A stretch of DNA of 37,860 bases from a virus. Its lineage: Duplodnaviria; Heunggongvirae; Uroviricota; Caudoviricetes. The notes beneath the pieces are model-generated. The model was not told the DNA's origin. It ran no database searches and was given only the letters and a program-made list of their open reading frames with translations. The position numbers and the translations under genes are program-made. The DNA lies in the IMG/VR virus record IMGVR_UViG_2541047762_000007. The stretch is one strand, 5' to 3'. Below are positions 2,812 to 15,361 of this stretch, one piece after another. Numbering within the stretch: the stretch's first letter is position 1; each line of letters opens with the position of its first letter.

Positions 2812-4398
2812 TCACGCCGCCCTCACGATATAGTTAAATGCGATATTGCGGGGGCGAGCTGATACATAAGCCCACCAGTCATATCTTTGTGCACCTTTAG
2901 AGGATGCATCAAATATCCACTTTTTGCCATTTATGACCCCCAGTTGATTAGAGGTTAAAGCGTCACCAAATCCGTATTGTGTAGAGCCGAGCGAACTGAT
3001 ATCTCCGGTATTATTATCATCAAAACCGGATACGATAGTCCCTTCCTGAAATGAAAGTACCGTACGCCCGGTATCAACCTTGCGACCACCGTCCCATCCA
3101 CGGATAAACTCACCGCGCAAATCGGGAAGACGGAGGGTCGGGTAGACTCTGGCCAGAACAGGATATTGTTCTTTGGTGAACGTAGCTCCGTTGCACTGTA
3201 ACCAGCCTGCTGGCGGTGTGGCGGTGGGCCATGGAACCGGTACACCAACAGGCAATGCAGAGCCTTCCCCCAAACCAAGGTAATTGAGGACATCTTTTAT
3301 ACTGCCCTTAGCGATAATAGCGCGACCAATAGCTGTAAGGGTTGCCAGCGCTGCGCGGTCTGCTCCGGTAAAATAAGGCAACCGATCTGCTGCAGTGGCA
3401 AGTCCTGCCAGAGCAGTGAGCGTGGCATCTGCCGGTTGTTTTCCGTTTGCCAGATCGTATGCAGCCTTGACGGCCTTTGGTGTGGCGGCCAGCGTTTCAG
3501 ACGTGCTGTTGATGGCGCTGCTCAATTGTACGGTGCCTTTTGCCGTCAGCGAGGCAGCAGGCACTCCCGTTATCTGACTCCACGGGTGAGTGTGGCTGAC
3601 GGGCGCCTTGCCGGCTGCAAGGTCGTATGCAGCCTTGACGGCCTTTGGTGTGGCGGCCAGCGTTTCAGACGTGCTGTTGATGGCGCTGCTCAATTGTACG
3701 GTGCCTTTTGCCGTCAGCGAGGCAGCAGGCACTCCCGTTATCTGACTCCACGGGTGAGTGTGGCTGACGGGCGCCTTGCCGGCTGCAAGGTCGTATGCAG
3801 CCTTGACGGCCTTTGGTGTGGCGGCCAGCGTTTCAGACGTGCTGTTGATGGCACTGCTCAGTTGTACGATCCCTTTACGGGTCGTTGTTGCATCCTGGGC
3901 TGTGTATTTTCCCCGGGCCAGATCATACGCGATTTTCACAGCCTTCGGCGTGGCAGCCTCAGTTTCTGATTGACTGTCCGTGGCACTGCTCAGCTGTACG
4001 GTGCCTTTTGCCGTCAGCGAGGCAGCAGGCACTCCCGTTATCTGACTCCACGGGTGAGTGTGACTGACGGGTGCCTTGCCGGCTGCAAGGTCGTATGCAG
4101 CCTTGACGGCTTTTGGTGTGGCGGCCAGCGTTTCAGAGGTGCTGTTGGTGGCACTGCTCAGTTGGGTGAACCCCTTAGCTGTCAGTGTCGCGTCCGGGTG
4201 GTTACGGGAACGTACGTGTTCAGCCAGTGACTGTGCGGCTTCCTCCGTTTTTTTCTTCAGCCATTTCGTCCTGTTTGCCAGTTGCCGGGGGGCTCGATTT
4301 GATATCCCGTCTGCACCACCCAGAACCGGATCTGATGTCTCCAGTTGATAGATATTTTCTTCCCACTTTTCTGTTTCATTCAGGTTTCCCATAATCAA
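2812..4398 (-). CDS. Tail fibre protein with internal tandem repeats
   Basis: 528-aa ORF with repeated fibre motifs (TAKGTVQLSSAxxSTSETLAATPKAVKAAYDLA, SHTHPW). C-terminal part lies inside the invertible segment. Position matches Mu S. Confidence 0.9.
   Translation of the reverse strand: MIMGNLNETEKWEENIYQLETSDPVLGGADGISNRAPRQLANRTKWLKKKTEEAAQSLAEHVRSRNHPDATLTAKGFTQLSSATNSTSETLAATPKAVKAAYDLAAGKAPVSHTHPWSQITGVPAASLTAKGTVQLSSATDSQSETEAATPKAVKIAYDLARGKYTAQDATTTRKGIVQLSSAINSTSETLAATPKAVKAAYDLAAGKAPVSHTHPWSQITGVPAASLTAKGTVQLSSAINSTSETLAATPKAVKAAYDLAAGKAPVSHTHPWSQITGVPAASLTAKGTVQLSSAINSTSETLAATPKAVKAAYDLANGKQPADATLTALAGLATAADRLPYFTGADRAALATLTAIGRAIIAKGSIKDVLNYLGLGEGSALPVGVPVPWPTATPPAGWLQCNGATFTKEQYPVLARVYPTLRLPDLRGEFIRGWDGGRKVDTGRTVLSFQEGTIVSGFDDNNTGDISSLGSTQYGFGDALTSNQLGVINGKKWIFDASSKGAQRYDWWAYVSARPRNIAFNYIVRAA
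3061..3290. repeat. Right inverted repeat of invertible tail-fibre segment (gix-like site at 3265..3290)
   Basis: Reverse complement matches 1674..1889. TTCCCCCAAACCAAGG at 3265..3280 is the inverted partner of the left site. Confidence 0.7.
3440..4200. repeat. 168-bp (56-aa) tandem repeats within tail fibre gene
   Basis: Three near-identical units are in register at ~3455, 3623 and 3791, followed by two more diverged units. The plus-strand shadow ORF 3436..3969 shows the same period. Confidence 0.85.
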
Positions 4399-8706: not shown

Positions 8707-9587
8707 ACACTCCTCGTCAGTATTCTGGCGGCCACTGCACTTAATCCCGGAGACATGCGGTTGAATGCTGTGCCGGCGGCGTTAAGCTGCCCGGAAACGG
8801 TATCCAGAGCACCTGCAATATTTCTTTTGTCCACACCACTCAGCGCAGACTGTGCCTGCTGTACATACGTGGCTGCTTCGCTGGCTGTTCTGGCCAGACT
8901 GATGGCATCGGGCATGGATTCAGAGAGTGCGTTAAACGCCGGAACACTTTTCCCCAGAGCCCCGGAGATATTACCCAGTCCGCTCATCAGCCCCGGCACA
9001 CGGGTCAGTGCGACAACGGGGTTATCCTTCATTTTCTGTGTCACCCGAACGGCGCTGATAGTGGTCTGGAGTACAGACTGCGCCTGTTTCGCATAGTTGA
9101 CGCCGTTGCGGATGAACTGCGCCACCCCTGAAGGTGAAGGAATGGCACCGGAGACCGCCCCGACACCCGGGAGCTTCGTGCGTATTGCCGGTGGTTGCAG
9201 AGGATTTTTCGGGTCACCGGTGTATTCCCGGAGAGACACGGTGGCACTGACAGCCAGCACGTTGCCGGTACTGTCAGTCTGCTCGCTGGTTGCAGTCACA
9301 TCGGTAATCACGAACCAGCCGCGATAGTCACCGTTGCCGAAGACCAGCGCCAGTGCCTGATGGGCTTTCATGGCTGTTCGCAGTCTCGCCAGCTCCACAT
9401 CGGGTACACAATAATGCTGATGGAAAACCAGAGTTATCTGGATTTCGTCCAGCCTGTCGCCGACGAATTGCAGGCCAGGCTTCCCCCCGATGCGGGCATG
9501 CTCCGCATAATCGACGCCGAACGTGGCCTCGAAGCCGTCCCAGTAGGTAATCAGCTCAAACTCAATATCACCCAGTACGGCAAACAT
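8703..9587 (-). CDS. Tail protein (Mu N / DNA circulation protein-like position)
   Basis: 294 aa, immediately downstream of the tape measure gene and coupled to it. Confidence 0.55.
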   Translation of the reverse strand: MFAVLGDIEFELITYWDGFEATFGVDYAEHARIGGKPGLQFVGDRLDEIQITLVFHQHYCVPDVELARLRTAMKAHQALALVFGNGDYRGWFVITDVTATSEQTDSTGNVLAVSATVSLREYTGDPKNPLQPPAIRTKLPGVGAVSGAIPSPSGVAQFIRNGVNYAKQAQSVLQTTISAVRVTQKMKDNPVVALTRVPGLMSGLGNISGALGKSVPAFNALSESMPDAISLARTASEAATYVQQAQSALSGVDKRNIAGALDTVSGQLNAAGTAFNRMSPGLSAVAARILTRSV

Positions 9588-12538
9588 CAGCGGTACTCCT
9601 TACGTTGTTTCTGAGCCAGCAGACGCTCCAGCATTTTTTCCAGCTCATGCAGACTCATATTCAGGGCACCAGTCAGTCCTGCAGGCGCTGTGGTTTCCCT
9701 GCCATTGAGGAAAAACTGAGGATTAAAGCTGACCTGGATACCACCAGACGTTCCACCGCCGGTTGCAGCTGCACCACGGCCTGAATATCCGGCAGCCAGG
9801 ATTTCAGGCGAGGGGATACGGGGAACATCCGGTGTCATCTCATTTGCCAGACGTTGCCCTGGTAAAATCGATGCCCGGGTGGAGAGCGGAATAGCGGGCA
9901 TGGAAGACAAACTATTGATTACGGATCCGATCGCATTTTTAGCAGACGACATAAACCCGTTGATATCGGGCAACGGCATACTGAAGCGAACACCTGAAGT
10001 GTTATCCCGTATTTCTGGCCCCTGAATGCTCACGGGCATTTTGGGGAGCAGTTCACTGACCATTCGCTGACCGGCCAGAGCTGCAAGCGGAGTGCTCCGC
10101 TGCAGGCCAATGGCGGCCCCCTGCGCGATATTGTCACCAAAGCCCATAAACACGCGGCTCGGCGAATGAATGCCCAGCTTTTCGCTGAACCAGCCACTGA
10201 TGCTGTCGCCCATTCCGGTTACGCTGGTTTTGAGTGACTCCCATTTGTTTTTGATACCGTTAATCAGACCGTCGACAAGATGGCCACCGAAGTCGGTGAA
10301 CTTTGCCGGCAGCTCAACGCCGAGATATTTCAGCGCAGCTGCAAAGGCTTTATAGAGCAGACCTGCCGGCGACCAGTTAATCAGCAGCTTACCAGTTCCC
10401 ACGATACCGCCGTTAAAGGCTTCCTGAATGTCAGCCCAGCGTTGTTTAAACCAGCTACTGATGCTGTCACCCATTCCGGTTACACTGGATTTGAGCGCCC
10501 CCCATTTGTTTTTGATACCGTTAATCAGACCGTCGATAAGATGGCCACCGAAGTCGGTGAACTTTGCCGGCAGAGCAACGCCGAAATATTTCAGCGCAGC
10601 CGCAAAGGCTTTATAGAGCAGGCCTGCCGGCGACCAGTTAATCAGCAACTTACCAATTCCCACAATGCCGCCGTTAAAGGCTTCCTGAATGTCAGCCCAG
10701 CGCTGTTTAAACCAGCCACTGACTGCCCCCCAGTTGCGGTAGATAAGGTAAGCTGCTGCCGCGACAGCGGTGATAACGAGACCGATGGGATTCATCATCA
10801 GCGCACGTCCAATCCAGAGAACAGCACGTCCGGCGAGCATAATTCCGCGAACCAGCCCCCCGGAGAGCACGCCACTCAGTGTTCTGGCTCCTCTGGCGAC
10901 GGCGCTAAATCCGGTCACCAGCCAGCGGAGCTTACCGCCTTGCCCCAGTGCGAGCGACAGACGAAGCCAGTTGGCCCGAAGTAAAACAGCATTTTTCCAG
11001 ACACTTACAAAGGGGGAAATAAGGAGATTCAGCCCCAGTTTGAGACCAACAGTCGCTATCTTAATCGCAAGGAGCGCACTGATGAGCTTAAAAGCCCCAC
11101 TGACAAATTGCGGGTGAGTCGCTACCCAGTGTTTTGTCCCCTGAATGAGTGGGAGCAAGTCCTGAGTCAGAGAAATAAAAGATGGAGCTAATTGATCGCC
11201 CAGCGTAATTGCCAGATCGCGACTGCTGACCATAAGTGCTTTAGTGGCTTCAAGGGGAGATTTCAGCCGCTGATCATAAGCACTGGCAAGCAAATCGTTA
11301 TCCGCAGCCCTGAGAGCACCGGCGCGGATCTCGCGATATCTGTCCATGTTGGCCAGCATCGGGCGGATAAATGCCATGACCTGCATATCCGCGAACATAT
11401 CACCCAGACCAAAGTTTTTCGCCAGAGCCTGAAGTGCCTCATCTCTTGCCGTATCATTCTTTATTTTCATGGCGGATTTGAAGCCGGCCAGCGCTTCGGG
11501 GCTTTTGGCATTGAGGTAACGTTCTATAACACTCAACATCCCTTCAATCGGAGAGATCCCCGCAGCCTTATAACTCGCAATAGATCCCTGCAAATCAATA
11601 CCCAGATCAGCAAACTGTTTCTGAGTATCGCGGGCAAAAATTTTGGTAAGAAAGTTTTTAAAATTATTGGCTGCCTCGTCGGTGGAACCTGCACCGATTT
11701 TTGCTATCTGGAGACTGGCCCCGATTTCAGCAACAGCCTCTTTTCCACTGGCAATACCCGCCATCATTGGGGCCAGGGACTGCATCCACTTGACCTGATC
11801 CGGGATTTCAAATGACCCCTGGTCACCGGCATAAGCCATAATATTCTGAACGGCACCAAAATCTCTGGCCGCACCTTTCAGGGAGTTTTGCCAGACTGCG
11901 GCCACTTTTGCCCAGTCCTGAGCAGACGTGCGTGTTGCCGTTGCCGCGCGGGCAATATCCGGCATCAGAAAACCGATATCTGACACATTATCAATATTGT
12001 CGCTGATGAGTGAACCCACCGCCTCCTGCAGCTCATCCTGATACTGATTGTATTTAAGCGCCCAGCCTTTTATCTGTCCGGCAAGTGCATCCCGCGTTTT
12101 ATTGTCATATTTTGCGGTGATCGACATATCAATCATTTTGTCCTGAAAAGACATGGACTGCTGAACGGCAGGGGAAACCGTATGATAAACAGTCTGTGCC
12201 ATGCCATACGCTTCAATCCCCTGACCATACAGCGCCATGCGGTTAGCTTTCAGCGCATCACTGGTAGCGGATGCCGCTGACAGACGGCGCTGCTGGCGCT
12301 CAATTTGCTCCATGGTGCGGCTTACCCGCAGCAGCTCGCTGTTGAGATGCTGCATCTGGGAAGAACCCAGTTGACCATAACGTTCTGTTGCACGGGTTAA
12401 AGCGTTCTGACGTTCCTGCAGGCGGCGTGAGGTATCGCTCAGGGAATCAAGCGCACGGCGGGTACCGCTCATTGCAGAACGGAATGTGCTGCCAATCATC
12501 CCGCCGATAACAACGCCGACTGAAAACTGTCCCGACAT
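9587..12538 (-). CDS. Tail tape measure protein
   Basis: 983 aa, helical N-terminus, hydrophobic central segment, located between chaperone and baseplate genes; contains an internal tandem duplication. Confidence 0.9.
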   Translation of the reverse strand: MSGQFSVGVVIGGMIGSTFRSAMSGTRRALDSLSDTSRRLQERQNALTRATERYGQLGSSQMQHLNSELLRVSRTMEQIERQQRRLSAASATSDALKANRMALYGQGIEAYGMAQTVYHTVSPAVQQSMSFQDKMIDMSITAKYDNKTRDALAGQIKGWALKYNQYQDELQEAVGSLISDNIDNVSDIGFLMPDIARAATATRTSAQDWAKVAAVWQNSLKGAARDFGAVQNIMAYAGDQGSFEIPDQVKWMQSLAPMMAGIASGKEAVAEIGASLQIAKIGAGSTDEAANNFKNFLTKIFARDTQKQFADLGIDLQGSIASYKAAGISPIEGMLSVIERYLNAKSPEALAGFKSAMKIKNDTARDEALQALAKNFGLGDMFADMQVMAFIRPMLANMDRYREIRAGALRAADNDLLASAYDQRLKSPLEATKALMVSSRDLAITLGDQLAPSFISLTQDLLPLIQGTKHWVATHPQFVSGAFKLISALLAIKIATVGLKLGLNLLISPFVSVWKNAVLLRANWLRLSLALGQGGKLRWLVTGFSAVARGARTLSGVLSGGLVRGIMLAGRAVLWIGRALMMNPIGLVITAVAAAAYLIYRNWGAVSGWFKQRWADIQEAFNGGIVGIGKLLINWSPAGLLYKAFAAALKYFGVALPAKFTDFGGHLIDGLINGIKNKWGALKSSVTGMGDSISSWFKQRWADIQEAFNGGIVGTGKLLINWSPAGLLYKAFAAALKYLGVELPAKFTDFGGHLVDGLINGIKNKWESLKTSVTGMGDSISGWFSEKLGIHSPSRVFMGFGDNIAQGAAIGLQRSTPLAALAGQRMVSELLPKMPVSIQGPEIRDNTSGVRFSMPLPDINGFMSSAKNAIGSVINSLSSMPAIPLSTRASILPGQRLANEMTPDVPRIPSPEILAAGYSGRGAAATGGGTSGGIQVSFNPQFFLNGRETTAPAGLTGALNMSLHELEKMLERLLAQKQRKEYR
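10190..10715. repeat. 261-bp tandem duplication inside tape measure gene
   Basis: CCAGC(C/T)ACTGA...TGCTGTC recurs at 10190, 10451 and 10712, in frame (87 aa). Two full copies of WFKQRWADIQEAFNGGIVG...SVTGMGDSIS appear in the protein. Confidence 0.85.
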
Positions 12539-12613
12539 AGTGGTTAACCTCCGGGGAAGGTGAAAAGACGTGAGGGGATAACGCAGAACAGCCGCTACTG
12601 GCGGCTGTCTGTA

Positions 12614-12871
12614 CTATGATTTGTCGCCGTACTCGCTTTTGATTTGCTCTTCAGCCTGCTCCAGCCACATCTCCAGATCGTCAGTATCGAGGGCATCAAT
12701 CTCCCCCGGCTGAAACCGGAACCATCTCGCCAGCAGCCCCTGCGCCTGCGTCAGCGCCCTGGTTGCTCTCACCCATCCCCGTGATGAGCTGAAATCGTTT
12801 CTGTAACTGCAGGTAATCAGCCAGATCCATATTGTCGAGATCTTCCGGGAGAAGACCAGTACTGCGGGCAA
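12614..12871 (-). CDS. Putative frameshift extension of tail assembly chaperone (GT-like C-terminal part)
   Basis: Open frame overlapping the 3' part of 12696..13031. Its distal part (EIDALDTDDLEMWLEQAEEQIKSEYGDKS) looks protein-like; its proximal part does not. Confidence 0.4.
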   Translation of the reverse strand: MPAVLVFSRKISTIWIWLITCSYRNDFSSSRGWVRATRALTQAQGLLARWFRFQPGEIDALDTDDLEMWLEQAEEQIKSEYGDKS

Positions 12872-13031
12872 TCAGCGGTTCGTCCCAGTCTGCCGGGTTT
12901 TTGCTGATTTTGCGCACCTGCTTCAGGTCTTTTACCGTCAGGCGTTTCAGTTCAACCTGCTCAATTCTGGTGCCTGCAGCAGTGGTGAAGGGATAAGACA
13001 ATTTAAAAGTATCGGATGGGGTCTGTGACAT
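12696..13031 (-). CDS. Tail assembly chaperone (G-like), candidate frameshift donor
   Basis: 111 aa directly upstream of the tape measure. A second ORF (12614..12871) overlaps in the +1 frame and ends just before the tape measure gene. Confidence 0.55.
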   Translation of the reverse strand: MSQTPSDTFKLSYPFTTAAGTRIEQVELKRLTVKDLKQVRKISKNPADWDEPLIARSTGLLPEDLDNMDLADYLQLQKRFQLITGMGESNQGADAGAGAAGEMVPVSAGGD

Positions 13032-13128
13032 GATTGTGCTCCTGTGTAAGTTCAGGGCAGTATGTCGGGAGAAGCGCGTGACGGATATTAAAGGAGATTA
13101 AGAAGAAGGGGCCGGAGCCCCTGTGATG

Positions 13129-13410
13129 TCAGCAAGTGCGAAACCCCTTGCAGTTACGCAGGAAAGCGATGAGAAGCGTCTTTCCCTCAGATTTGCCGGT
13201 GCCGGAGAACCAGTGGTCGGGAGGCTCCCATGCTTCAATCAAATCCGCCAGTTTGCGGGCCTTTGAACGTGTGCAGTCAATCGGGTCATTGGTTTTACGG
13301 GTATTAAAAAGGGTTTCCACCCCCGGAATATCAAGGAGGGTAAACCACGTACCATTTGACATGCCCAGTGCCGCACATCGTCCTCCTTTATCCGTCAGTT
13401 CAACACTCAC
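13129..13410 (-). CDS. Hypothetical protein between tail tube and chaperone
   Basis: 93-aa ORF tightly packed after the tube gene (GTG start); no recognisable motif. Confidence 0.35.
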   Translation of the reverse strand: MSVELTDKGGRCAALGMSNGTWFTLLDIPGVETLFNTRKTNDPIDCTRSKARKLADLIEAWEPPDHWFSGTGKSEGKTLLIAFLRNCKGFRTC

Positions 13411-13412
13411 CG

Positions 13413-13934
13413 TCAGCCCCCGATATTGATACGGTAGTCAGTCAGTTGATCAACACCGCCGACCCGGAAGATGTTGGCCAGATAGTCCAGTTGCAGCAGC
13501 TCTTCACCATCCAGTACCTGTCTGATATACGTGCAGGTGAAGCTACTGGAGAACTCGGCGTTCTCGTGCTGTTTGAACGTCCCCAGCGGGTTCTTCTTGA
13601 ACATAATCGTCAGGAAGGTGACCAGCGGGATTTCGTCAATCAGCCCCTGCGAGCTGTAGCGCTGGACGCTGGAACGACACTGCAGTGCCAGCGACCTGTA
13701 CGGGTTCGCGGCTGACAGCATCGCATCGCGGTAAAAGCTGTTCCATTTGATTTCGCCTTCCAGTTTGTCAAAACCAGCCGGGAGTTCCACCTTACCCACC
13801 ATCCCCAGCGCCTTGTGTTCCTGCATAATCATGGAGACATCGGGGAGTTTAACTTCCTCAGCCCGTCCCAGCAGGTTAGTACCATCCAGATAGATGTTGG
13901 CATTCGTGATGCGGTTTATCTCAATCTTTGACAT
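13413..13934 (-). CDS. Tail tube protein (Mu M / P2 FII-like)
   Basis: 173 aa immediately downstream of the sheath gene. Confidence 0.8.
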   Translation of the reverse strand: MSKIEINRITNANIYLDGTNLLGRAEEVKLPDVSMIMQEHKALGMVGKVELPAGFDKLEGEIKWNSFYRDAMLSAANPYRSLALQCRSSVQRYSSQGLIDEIPLVTFLTIMFKKNPLGTFKQHENAEFSSSFTCTYIRQVLDGEELLQLDYLANIFRVGGVDQLTDYRINIGG

Positions 13935-15361
13935 CAGTTGCCCCCTTTCAGGGTTAACAGGTATTCCGAGGTGATCTCAGTCTCAAACGTCAGTCGCTCC
14001 AGCGGCGGCGGTGGCGTATATTTGTAGCTCAGCAACAGGTGCCCGGCGGCCAGCTCCGTCTCCGGATTGCGGGCCGGATCAAACCAGCAACGGAAGCCCA
14101 GTACCGCACCATCACCAGTCATTTTGCGACCGTAGGCGTTGACCGACTCCGTCAGTGCATCAATCAGCGCCTGAGTAATCGGCATGTCGATGTACTGCTG
14201 GCTGAAATAACGAATGGACTCGTTGATCACATCACCGGTGCGGCGAACGTTCTCAAAGTTACGCATATGGGTGACCGTTGGCCATGCTGCCGTCCGGTTA
14301 CCCCACAGACGAAGGCCGCTGCCGTAACTGCTGAATACCGTGGTGATCCCCTGTTCGTTAAGCAGGTTCACCTCACTCTGCGGGTCATCAATCATCGCGG
14401 ACAGCTGGCGCTCCACGCCGGTGATCCCCAGAATCTCCTGATTGGAGGATGACCACCAGTAGCCCTTGTCCAGATCGACTCTGGCACGCAGACCTGCTGC
14501 ACGCTGGCTGAGCGGCTCCAGACGCTCTGTGTTTGTCACCGGGTCATATACCTTCACATGCGGATAGCACAGACGGACGCGGTCGGAGCTGGTATTGAAG
14601 TTGATGGTGCCTTCCGGGCCACGACCTGCCAGAGCCTGTGCAAAGGTGGTACCGACAGGCGCATCAATGTAGGTTACCGCGCCCAGCTTCTCTGCCATGG
14701 CGATAAGCTCAACTGCGACACTCTTCTGGGTGCAGAACACCGGCGCAATCAGAATTTTGGCGAAATAGCCGTACAGGTTGAAGCTGTCGTTAAGCAGCTT
14801 CATGCCGGTTCGGTTTCCGGCGCTGTTCACCCCGCCGATGATGTCCGCCGCAGTCACCTTCGACGGGTCCGCGTACTCATAGCTCACCTTCACGCTGCCA
14901 CCGGCCTCAATAGCCTTGCCCAGGTTCGTGAGCACACCCGCCTGCGCATCAACACGGTAGTCCGTGTTCGCCGTGTGGGTGGTGCTGCCTTCACTGTTTT
15001 TCACCACCACATTAGCGACAACCGGATGCGCCAGTCTGGCCTGCCCTGTCGATTTGTCAAAGGTAACCACCTCATCCTCGATCGCCGTTTTATGTTTCGC
15101 CGGGTCGAGGACGTTAATGACCAGAACGGTGCCTGCACTATGGTCATAAATCGCATCCAGCGCCTGCGGAATGGTAAAGCCGGTGAACTGGCTGCCAAAT
15201 GCCGCTGCGTCTTTCTCAGACAGGCACTGTACCAGCGTATTGACATCCCCCATCGGGGCGGTACCAATCAGGCCAATAACGGCAGATTTCACCGTTTTAA
15301 CCGGGCGGGCTCCGTTTTCCACCTCAATGGTTTCGACGCCATGCAGATAGTTAGCTGCCAT
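13934..15361 (-). CDS. Contractile tail sheath protein (Mu L-like)
   Basis: 475 aa, sheath-like composition, followed by the tube gene. Confidence 0.9.
   Translation of the reverse strand: MAANYLHGVETIEVENGARPVKTVKSAVIGLIGTAPMGDVNTLVQCLSEKDAAAFGSQFTGFTIPQALDAIYDHSAGTVLVINVLDPAKHKTAIEDEVVTFDKSTGQARLAHPVVANVVVKNSEGSTTHTANTDYRVDAQAGVLTNLGKAIEAGGSVKVSYEYADPSKVTAADIIGGVNSAGNRTGMKLLNDSFNLYGYFAKILIAPVFCTQKSVAVELIAMAEKLGAVTYIDAPVGTTFAQALAGRGPEGTINFNTSSDRVRLCYPHVKVYDPVTNTERLEPLSQRAAGLRARVDLDKGYWWSSSNQEILGITGVERQLSAMIDDPQSEVNLLNEQGITTVFSSYGSGLRLWGNRTAAWPTVTHMRNFENVRRTGDVINESIRYFSQQYIDMPITQALIDALTESVNAYGRKMTGDGAVLGFRCWFDPARNPETELAAGHLLLSYKYTPPPPLERLTFETEITSEYLLTLKGGN

Follow-up and report, generated by a model that had tools for sequence, protein, structure and literature searches.

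Between the tail tube and tape measure genes of a BcepMu-like contractile-tailed E. coli prophage lie two overlapping open reading frames, which raises the question of how the second is translated and, if by frameshifting from the first, where and in which direction the ribosome changes frame. The prophage was analysed as a stretch of 37,860 nucleotides (IMG/VR record IMGVR_UViG_2541047762_000007), hereafter the window. Frameshifting in the tail assembly chaperone gene is characteristic of tailed phages, but annotations record it almost exclusively at −1 heptamers. We think it likely that a conserved +1 slip at UUU_C here makes a predicted 138-amino-acid G-T fusion. The genes of the region are as follows.

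13934..15361, minus strand: tail sheath gene (PF04984 and PF17482 matches)
13413..13934, minus strand: tail tube gene (PF04985 Phage_tube, E = 2.9e-53)
13129..13410, minus strand: conserved ORF of 93 amino acids (phrog_1239, E = 4.6e-48)
12696..13031, minus strand: gene G, tail assembly chaperone of 111 amino acids, frame 0 (PF10109, phrog_166)
12871..12614, minus strand: second ORF, in the +1 (= −2) frame, its codons starting one base later than those of G
9587..12538, minus strand: tape measure gene of 983 amino acids, directly downstream (PF10145, E = 2e-20; phrog_28, phrog_5690)

The layout proposed in a first-pass annotation, an ORF upstream of the tape measure gene overlapped by a second ORF as in the G/GT arrangement, was borne out by coordinates and domain matches, two overlapping ORFs being found between the tube and tape measure genes. 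G matches PF10109 Phage_TAC_7 ('Phage tail assembly chaperone proteins, E, or 41 or 14') over residues 8–81 (E = 3.5e-22; 78.7 bits, cut-off 25) and phrog_166 'tail protein' (E = 3e-33), and PGAP names it 'phage tail assembly protein'. Its 3' end reads GCC GGG GGA GAT TGA on the coding strand, with the TGA at 12698..12696; the second ORF ends at a TAG (12616..12614), 75 nt upstream of the tape measure ATG (12538). The same annotation had placed the extension in the +1 (= −2) frame rather than the usual −1 frame, and the phase of the second ORF confirms this, the −1 frame carrying stops within the overlap. It had also judged the +1 tail protein-like: the last 52 residues of the second ORF match phrog_8286 (E = 7.9e-34), and the same arrangement recurs in 211 related loci. 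The closest phage record is Escherichia phage PhiKM (genus Bcepmuvirus), with 99.7% identity over the chaperone stretch, where its annotation gives 'tail protein E' alone. Of 5426 complete E. coli genomes, 637 contain the same 500 bases; with hundreds of independent assemblies in agreement, the stretch does not reflect the sequencing error that the first-pass annotation had named as a possible refutation. PGAP annotation of the records listed for the full-length match gives 'phage tail assembly protein' alone at this stretch.

Several other features of the region were recorded. The 93-amino-acid ORF (13129..13410) between the tube and chaperone genes has a weak, below-threshold match to DUF7739; it was found in PhiKM and KP12 and is missing at the matching position in BcepMu and P2. 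A terminator-like hairpin (AGGGGCTCCGGCCCCT, then TCTTCTTAAT) lies at 13122..13107 (minus strand) between this ORF and G. A second, GC-rich hairpin stands right behind the stop of the second ORF at 12608..12588 (minus strand; ACAGCCGC-CAGTA-GCGGCTGT, then TTCTGCGTT). Across the window clade its stem is kept and its loop varies, and some relatives read GCAGCC-loop-GGCTGC, then TTTCTTTCTT. Lying between the chaperone and tape measure genes, this second hairpin may act as a leaky terminator or as a stabilising element; a terminator scan did not flag it. The tape measure gene contains a 261-bp tandem duplication (10188..10722, minus strand; 2.0 copies, 93% identical) that repeats an 87-amino-acid block (SWFKQRWADIQEAFNGG...), which would mean a longer tail than in single-copy relatives if tail length scales with tape measure length.

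The part of the second ORF that would be appended to G, termed T, comprises the following.

12614..12790, minus strand: +1 segment after the proposed slip, 58 codons and the TAG, translation SSSRGWVRATRALTQAQGLLARWFRFQPGEIDALDTDDLEMWLEQAEEQIKSEYGDKS (phrog_8286)
12635..12733, minus strand: conserved T core (GLLARWFRFQPGEIDALDTDDLEMWLEQAEEQI), related to the P2 E' extension, PF06528

Within the +1 segment, variation is purely synonymous from QGLL onward. T of the window scores below the cut-off of 23 against PF06528 (Phage_P2_GpE; E = 0.01, 15.8 bits), the Neisseria homologue matches the same family with E = 2.5e-9 (36.9 bits), and a match was obtained for 13 of 18 diverse T segments. Alignment of the +1-type T profile with P2 E' by hhalign gave a probability of 91.6% (E = 8e-7). 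On these profile comparisons, T is homologous to the E' extension of P2. PGAP names the stand-alone ORF copy 'GpE family phage tail protein' (52 amino acids). No NCBIfam model matched GT or T, and a sequence search of solved structures found none.

To locate the change of frame, related loci were compared at two depths. Eighty relatives were taken from IMG/VR and 58 unique versions of the region aligned; codon tables were built from 56 of these, leaving out one that is cut short (L022) and one with an indel (L079). The sample was then widened by a one-genome-per-species scan, annotated phage records and three IMG/VR scans seeded with Neisseria and Pseudomonas homologues, giving 229 loci from Enterobacterales, Burkholderia, Ralstonia, Pseudomonas and Neisseria/Kingella that were typed with G-domain and T-extension HMMs. 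Of these, 211 have T in the +1 frame and 15 have it in the −1 frame; in 2 others, each a single-indel case, T is in frame with G. The +1 loci share one element.

12789..12797, minus strand: proposed +1 shift site CGA_UUU_CAG; TTT_C in 211/211 +1 loci

Within the window this comprises CGA (12797..12795), UUU encoding Phe80 (12794..12792) and the following C (12791). Each +1 locus has exactly one zero-frame TTT_C in the overlap (211/211, a count that overstates independence, since the loci are phylogenetically related and represent perhaps 8–10 deep lineages). The TTT is always the last G-domain residue, a position matched partly by construction, the typing queries having ended at Phe80. Aligned across the window and BcepMu clades, Phe80 is the last invariant residue of G, in the context CGA TTT CAG in the window and TCC TTT CGC in BcepMu. 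TTT_C occurs in 26 different 9-mer contexts, including CGA_TTT_CAG/CAA/CAT/CTG, TCC/GCC/ACC/ACG/TGG/CAC/TCT_TTT_CGC/CGT, GTG_TTT_CGG and GCA_TTT_CAA, and the residue after Phe varies (Gln, Arg, His or Leu), yet the first base of its codon is always C. As a control, codon usage was tabulated for 16 conserved degenerate residues within the last 66 codons of the G domain in 80 unique sequences. Phe80 is TTT in 80/80 and is the sole one of the 16 with no synonymous variation. TTT accounts for just 18% of the Phe codons of the GC-rich Burkholderia loci.

Stops in the two frames confine the shift to the interval from 3 codons before to 6 codons after TTT. In the Pseudomonas Komp_PAO1_1 clade and Ralstonia phage YO107_2 the T frame opens just 3 codons before TTC, and in the Neisseria/Kingella relatives the frame-0 stop comes just 6–8 codons after TTT. 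Provided that its position is conserved, the shift site must therefore lie within about 10 codons centred on TTT_C, as far as reading frames can tell. Codon variation points the same way. In the BcepMu clade the +1 codon after TTC is GCA, GCC, GCG or GCT, all Ala, with GTC in two members, while frame 0 there encodes S, L, R, G, C or D; selection on the +1 frame thus begins at the site. A Trp a few codons past the site is invariant in the +1 frame. The +1 ORF is conserved as protein with no conserved start of its own, as in the G/GT class.

The sequence around UUU_C was also inspected. The codon before UUU is CGA, a rare Arg codon, in all Enterobacterales and Ralstonia members, and another conserved Arg of G is CGA in 1/80 only. 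This invariance suggests that CGA is part of the slip signal, perhaps through a flanking-codon effect. The codons that would occupy the A site after UUU are CAG, CAA, CAT, CGC, CGT, CGG, CGA and CTG, most of which are common codons. Folding of 111–117 nt downstream gave no significant RNA structure in the window or in BcepMu (z = −0.98 and −0.84), and no Shine-Dalgarno-like sequence was found upstream of UUU_C. Low efficiency is therefore to be expected, which would suit a G:GT ratio of tens to one. An E. coli variant present on 914 contigs (L023, L024, P0011) has CAG changed to TAG at codon 91, 10 codons after Phe80, so that G is 90 amino acids long; the last 21 residues of G thus appear dispensable.

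tRNA-Phe pairs with both UUU and UUC, better with UUC, which favours a +1 move from UUU; moving by −2 instead would place it on GAU or CCU, with no pairing. Under the proposed mechanism, most ribosomes would read G through to the TGA at 12698..12696 and yield the 111-amino-acid protein, and a minority would shift +1 at CGA_UUU_CAG. The P-site tRNA-Phe would move from UUU (12794..12792) to the overlapping UUC (12793..12791), its better-matched codon; direct uptake of tRNA-Phe on UUC would be an equivalent route. Translation would then resume at AGC (12790) in the +1 frame and run to the TAG at 12616..12614. The predicted GT consists of G residues 1–80 followed by the +1 segment, 138 amino acids in all (...LQLQKRF-SSSRGWVRA...GLLARWFRFQPGEIDALD...). 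If lambda G/GT and P2 E/E+E' are a guide, the N-terminal domain common to both products would coat the tape measure protein and the rare T extension would recruit the tube protein, with slip efficiency setting the G:GT ratio. We infer from these comparisons that the fusion is produced, that the move is +1 rather than −2, how efficient it is and what it does in assembly.

Precedent for the tetramer comes from two sources. Influenza PA-X is produced by a shift at UCC_UUU_CGU, which contains UUU_C, and the same paper predicted a class of +1 signals made up of UUU_C with restricted flanking codons (PMC3498833). A 2025 preprint on frameshifting in an E. coli cell-free system (bioRxiv 10.1101/2025.10.02.679949) also lists TTT_C among the tetramers frequent at the +1 sites of highest efficiency.

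Four other accounts of the second ORF were weighed against a slip at UUU_C. The one that survives best, although we consider it unlikely, places a +1 slip of tRNA-Gly in the window clade on GGG_A (12779..12776, with GGG at 12779..12777; ACG GGG ATG), five codons past TTT. Conservation of the +1 frame in that clade (Gly-Trp-[AV]-Arg-Ala-Thr) begins exactly there, the four +1 codons between TTC and Gly-Trp being variable (S/R, K/S/N, S/L and L/R/Q/P), and GGG can be followed by any of the four bases (A/C/T/G), a variation that is silent in the +1 frame. However, GGG is replaced by GGC or GGT in the Brenneria relatives (L114, L116) and by AGC in BcepMu, making re-pairing impossible. A slip on GGG_A also leaves the nucleotide-level invariance of CGA_TTT_C unexplained, and the Burkholderia, Pseudomonas and Neisseria clades bracket the shift around TTT_C.

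It is very unlikely that the +1 ORF is instead a separate small gene with its own start, which in the window would be the GTG at 12772..12770 after GGGGA. Gene callers and PGAP sometimes call it alone, as a protein of 52 amino acids (phrog_8286, WP_001202894.1), and many relatives have an ATG in the +1 frame at 'CTG ATG CAG'. Neither start is conserved, the two positions reading ATG/ACG/ATT/ACA/AAA and GCA/GTG/GTA among relatives: that of the GTG is GCA in 33/56 unique sequences, and that of the ATG is ACG in the window itself and ATT, ACA or AAA elsewhere. Moreover, +1 conservation begins upstream of both candidates, and the Komp and Ralstonia clades, whose T frame opens 3 codons before TTC, have no start codon there. 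The homologous P2 E' has no independent start either and is annotated as a −1 fusion.

Slightly less probable again is a slip on the G-run close to the end of G, which the first-pass annotation had put forward as a possible slip site, pointing to a −2 shift reported for Mu.

12703..12707, minus strand: G-run GGGGG, read in the +1 frame as part of the Pro-Gly-Glu in the T core

A +1 slip of tRNA-Gly or a Mu-like −2 slip at GCC GGG GGA would give a product with the junction ...VSAG(G)EIDALD.... The run is present as described (GGGGG at 12707..12703) and permits re-pairing either way (GGG to GGG for +1, GGA to GGG for −2), the Mu −2 shift does use a G-run, and database proteins P0003–P0005 and P0007 have exactly this junction. 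Its role as a slip site did not hold up. In 30/56 unique close relatives frame 0 is closed before the run, by a TAG in 'GAG GTG GTT TAG' lying 21 nt before the position of the window TGA; altogether, the frame-0 stops of close relatives are spread over four positions. Read in the +1 frame, the run falls in CCG GGG GAG, with CCT or CCA and GAA as synonymous variants. Upstream of it, codon changes among the 56 unique relatives alter the protein in frame 0 but are silent in the +1 frame (for example AGA/AGG, TTC/TTT, CGG/AGA/AGG/CGC, GGG/GGC/GGA/GGT and CTG/CTA/CTC/TTG), and every variable codon is synonymous in +1 from 'CAG GGN CTN CTG GCG AGR TGG TTY MGN TTY CAR CCN GGG GAR' onward. The conserved protein (QGLLARWFRFQPGEIDALD...) therefore starts well upstream of the G-run; purifying selection on the +1 frame extends at least 13 codons upstream of it, and a fusion made at the run would lack half of the PF06528-like core (LLARWFRFQP). 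By comparison, UUU_C lies 88 bases upstream of the run. The Mu-like −2 idea fares no better: the family has no conserved G-run for −2 re-pairing, the run of the window being absent from the Burkholderia and Neisseria clades, and the conserved UUU_C permits +1 but not −2 re-pairing.

Apparent G-T fusions already exist as database proteins (P0001–P0010, P0012, P0016 and P0019), most of them from single short contigs. We rejected these as evidence for the junction: they join at different homopolymers (GGG, AAAAA, GGGGG), as expected of indel errors, some carry further frame errors, and they would mislead if used to place the slip. The in-frame fusions of L079 and L119 are likewise uninformative, being single cases with an indel. 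GCA_GGG_G (~12745) was also considered as a slip site and set aside, as its fourth G varies (GGGC/GGGT/GGGA) and +1 selection extends further upstream.

Finally, RNA polymerase slippage on a T-run or a sequencing or assembly artefact has a negligible chance of being right: one relative has six Ts (TTT TTT CGT, L194) and two have TCT TTT, but nearly all loci have only three, to our knowledge too short a run for transcriptional slippage, and the identical arrangement in hundreds of independent assemblies speaks against an artefact.

A +1 slip at UUU_C was then compared with known systems. The closest is P2, in which both parts are homologous, G belonging to PF10109 and T being related to the E' extension of PF06528 (hhalign, 91.6%). 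The gene order sheath, tube, chaperone, tape measure is shared, and the slip falls in both at the Phe codon ending the G domain. The P2 site is GGT TTT TTG, at about the same point of the protein, and no stimulatory RNA structure has been reported for E/E+E'. The two differ in signal and direction, with a −1 heptamer (T_TTT_TTG) in P2 and a +1 tetramer (UUU_C in CGA_TTT_CAG) in the window, and in the overlap from slip to G stop, which is 6 codons in P2 and 31 in the window. More generally, the canonical −1 heptamer X_XXY_YYZ of the Xu, Hendrix and Duda (2004) class is absent here, with TTT_C in its place.

Mu gp41/gpGT is alike in that Mu is also a transposable myophage, its G part falls in the same Pfam family and its extension is read in the matching frame (+1 = −2). 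The Mu slip, reported as −2 with an efficiency of ~2.2%, takes place on a G-run (CGG_GGG_CGA) 8 codons before the stop, whereas UUU_C is unable to re-pair after a −2 move. At the Phe corresponding to Phe80, Mu has TTC rather than TTT, and no similarity was detected between window-type T and the Mu extension. With lambda gpG/gpGT the window pair shares its position in the tail operon and, by inference, its function; this is a likeness of position, with no sequence similarity claimed, and the lambda shift is in the opposite direction (−1, at G_GGA_AAG).

Outside phage tails, the nearest parallel is influenza A PA-X, for which a P-site tRNA-Phe slip from UUU to UUC has likewise been proposed, and zero-frame UUU followed by C stands where the frames change in 211/211 of our loci. 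BcepMu has UCC_UUU_CGC. [quoted passage not shown] Among bacterial genes, prfB (RF2; CUU_UGA) is similar as a +1 P-site slip on a tetramer of the XYY_Y type. [quoted passage not shown]

The relatives also bear on annotation and on the history of the signal. BcepMu G is 31% identical to G of the window and the layout is the same: gp41 corresponds to G, and the +1 frame holds the ORF annotated as 'gp42', with the homologous ...LKIQPSEIAELDMDD.... The BcepMu GenBank record (L004, NC_005882) assigns G/T-type slippage at 3464..3969 to gp42 and gp43. Homology indicates that the pair is instead gp41 (G) and gp42 (the +1-frame T), leaving gp43 as an apparent chance ORF of GC-rich DNA. In the 15 loci whose T is in the −1 frame (Pasteurellaceae type; L137 and L209–L222, including Pasteurella phage AFS-2018a), the overlap includes CAA AAG GGA AAG and has no Phe/TTT_C. 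This sequence contains G_GGA_AAG, which we take to be the slippery heptamer of lambda G/GT. The approach thus recovers canonical signals where they are present, and the direction of frameshifting has therefore changed within the family.

The best reading of the locus is that it uses the known chaperone-frameshift trick of phages in an unannotated and widespread +1 variant. The G-T fusion is missing from every annotated record examined, and our literature search found neither a +1 nor a UUU_C chaperone frameshift reported for BcepMu-like phages, although an earlier mention is possible. We lean, with less assurance than for the slip itself, towards a broader proposal: stimulator-free UUU_C would be a dedicated, anciently conserved +1 chaperone signal in a large group of beta- and gamma-proteobacterial myophages, the family would have switched repeatedly between −1 (T_TTT_TTG, G_GGA_AAG) and +1 at nearly the same point of the gene, and CGA would be part of the signal in Enterobacterales.

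Members of the family occur in BcepMu-like phages of Burkholderia, Pseudomonas, Ralstonia and Neisseria as well as in 12% of complete E. coli genomes. A simple rule would allow their fusion products to be annotated, a zero-frame TTT_C at the last conserved Phe of PF10109 followed by a PF06528-like +1 ORF. A very short natural +1 signal in 26 codon contexts would offer a convenient bacterial system for studying the effects of neighbouring codons on +1 slippage. If the broader proposal is true, UUU_C would, after prfB, be among the most widespread natural bacterial +1 frameshifts and would match, in bacteria, the PA-X site of influenza, in a protein family within which the direction of programmed frameshifting changes.
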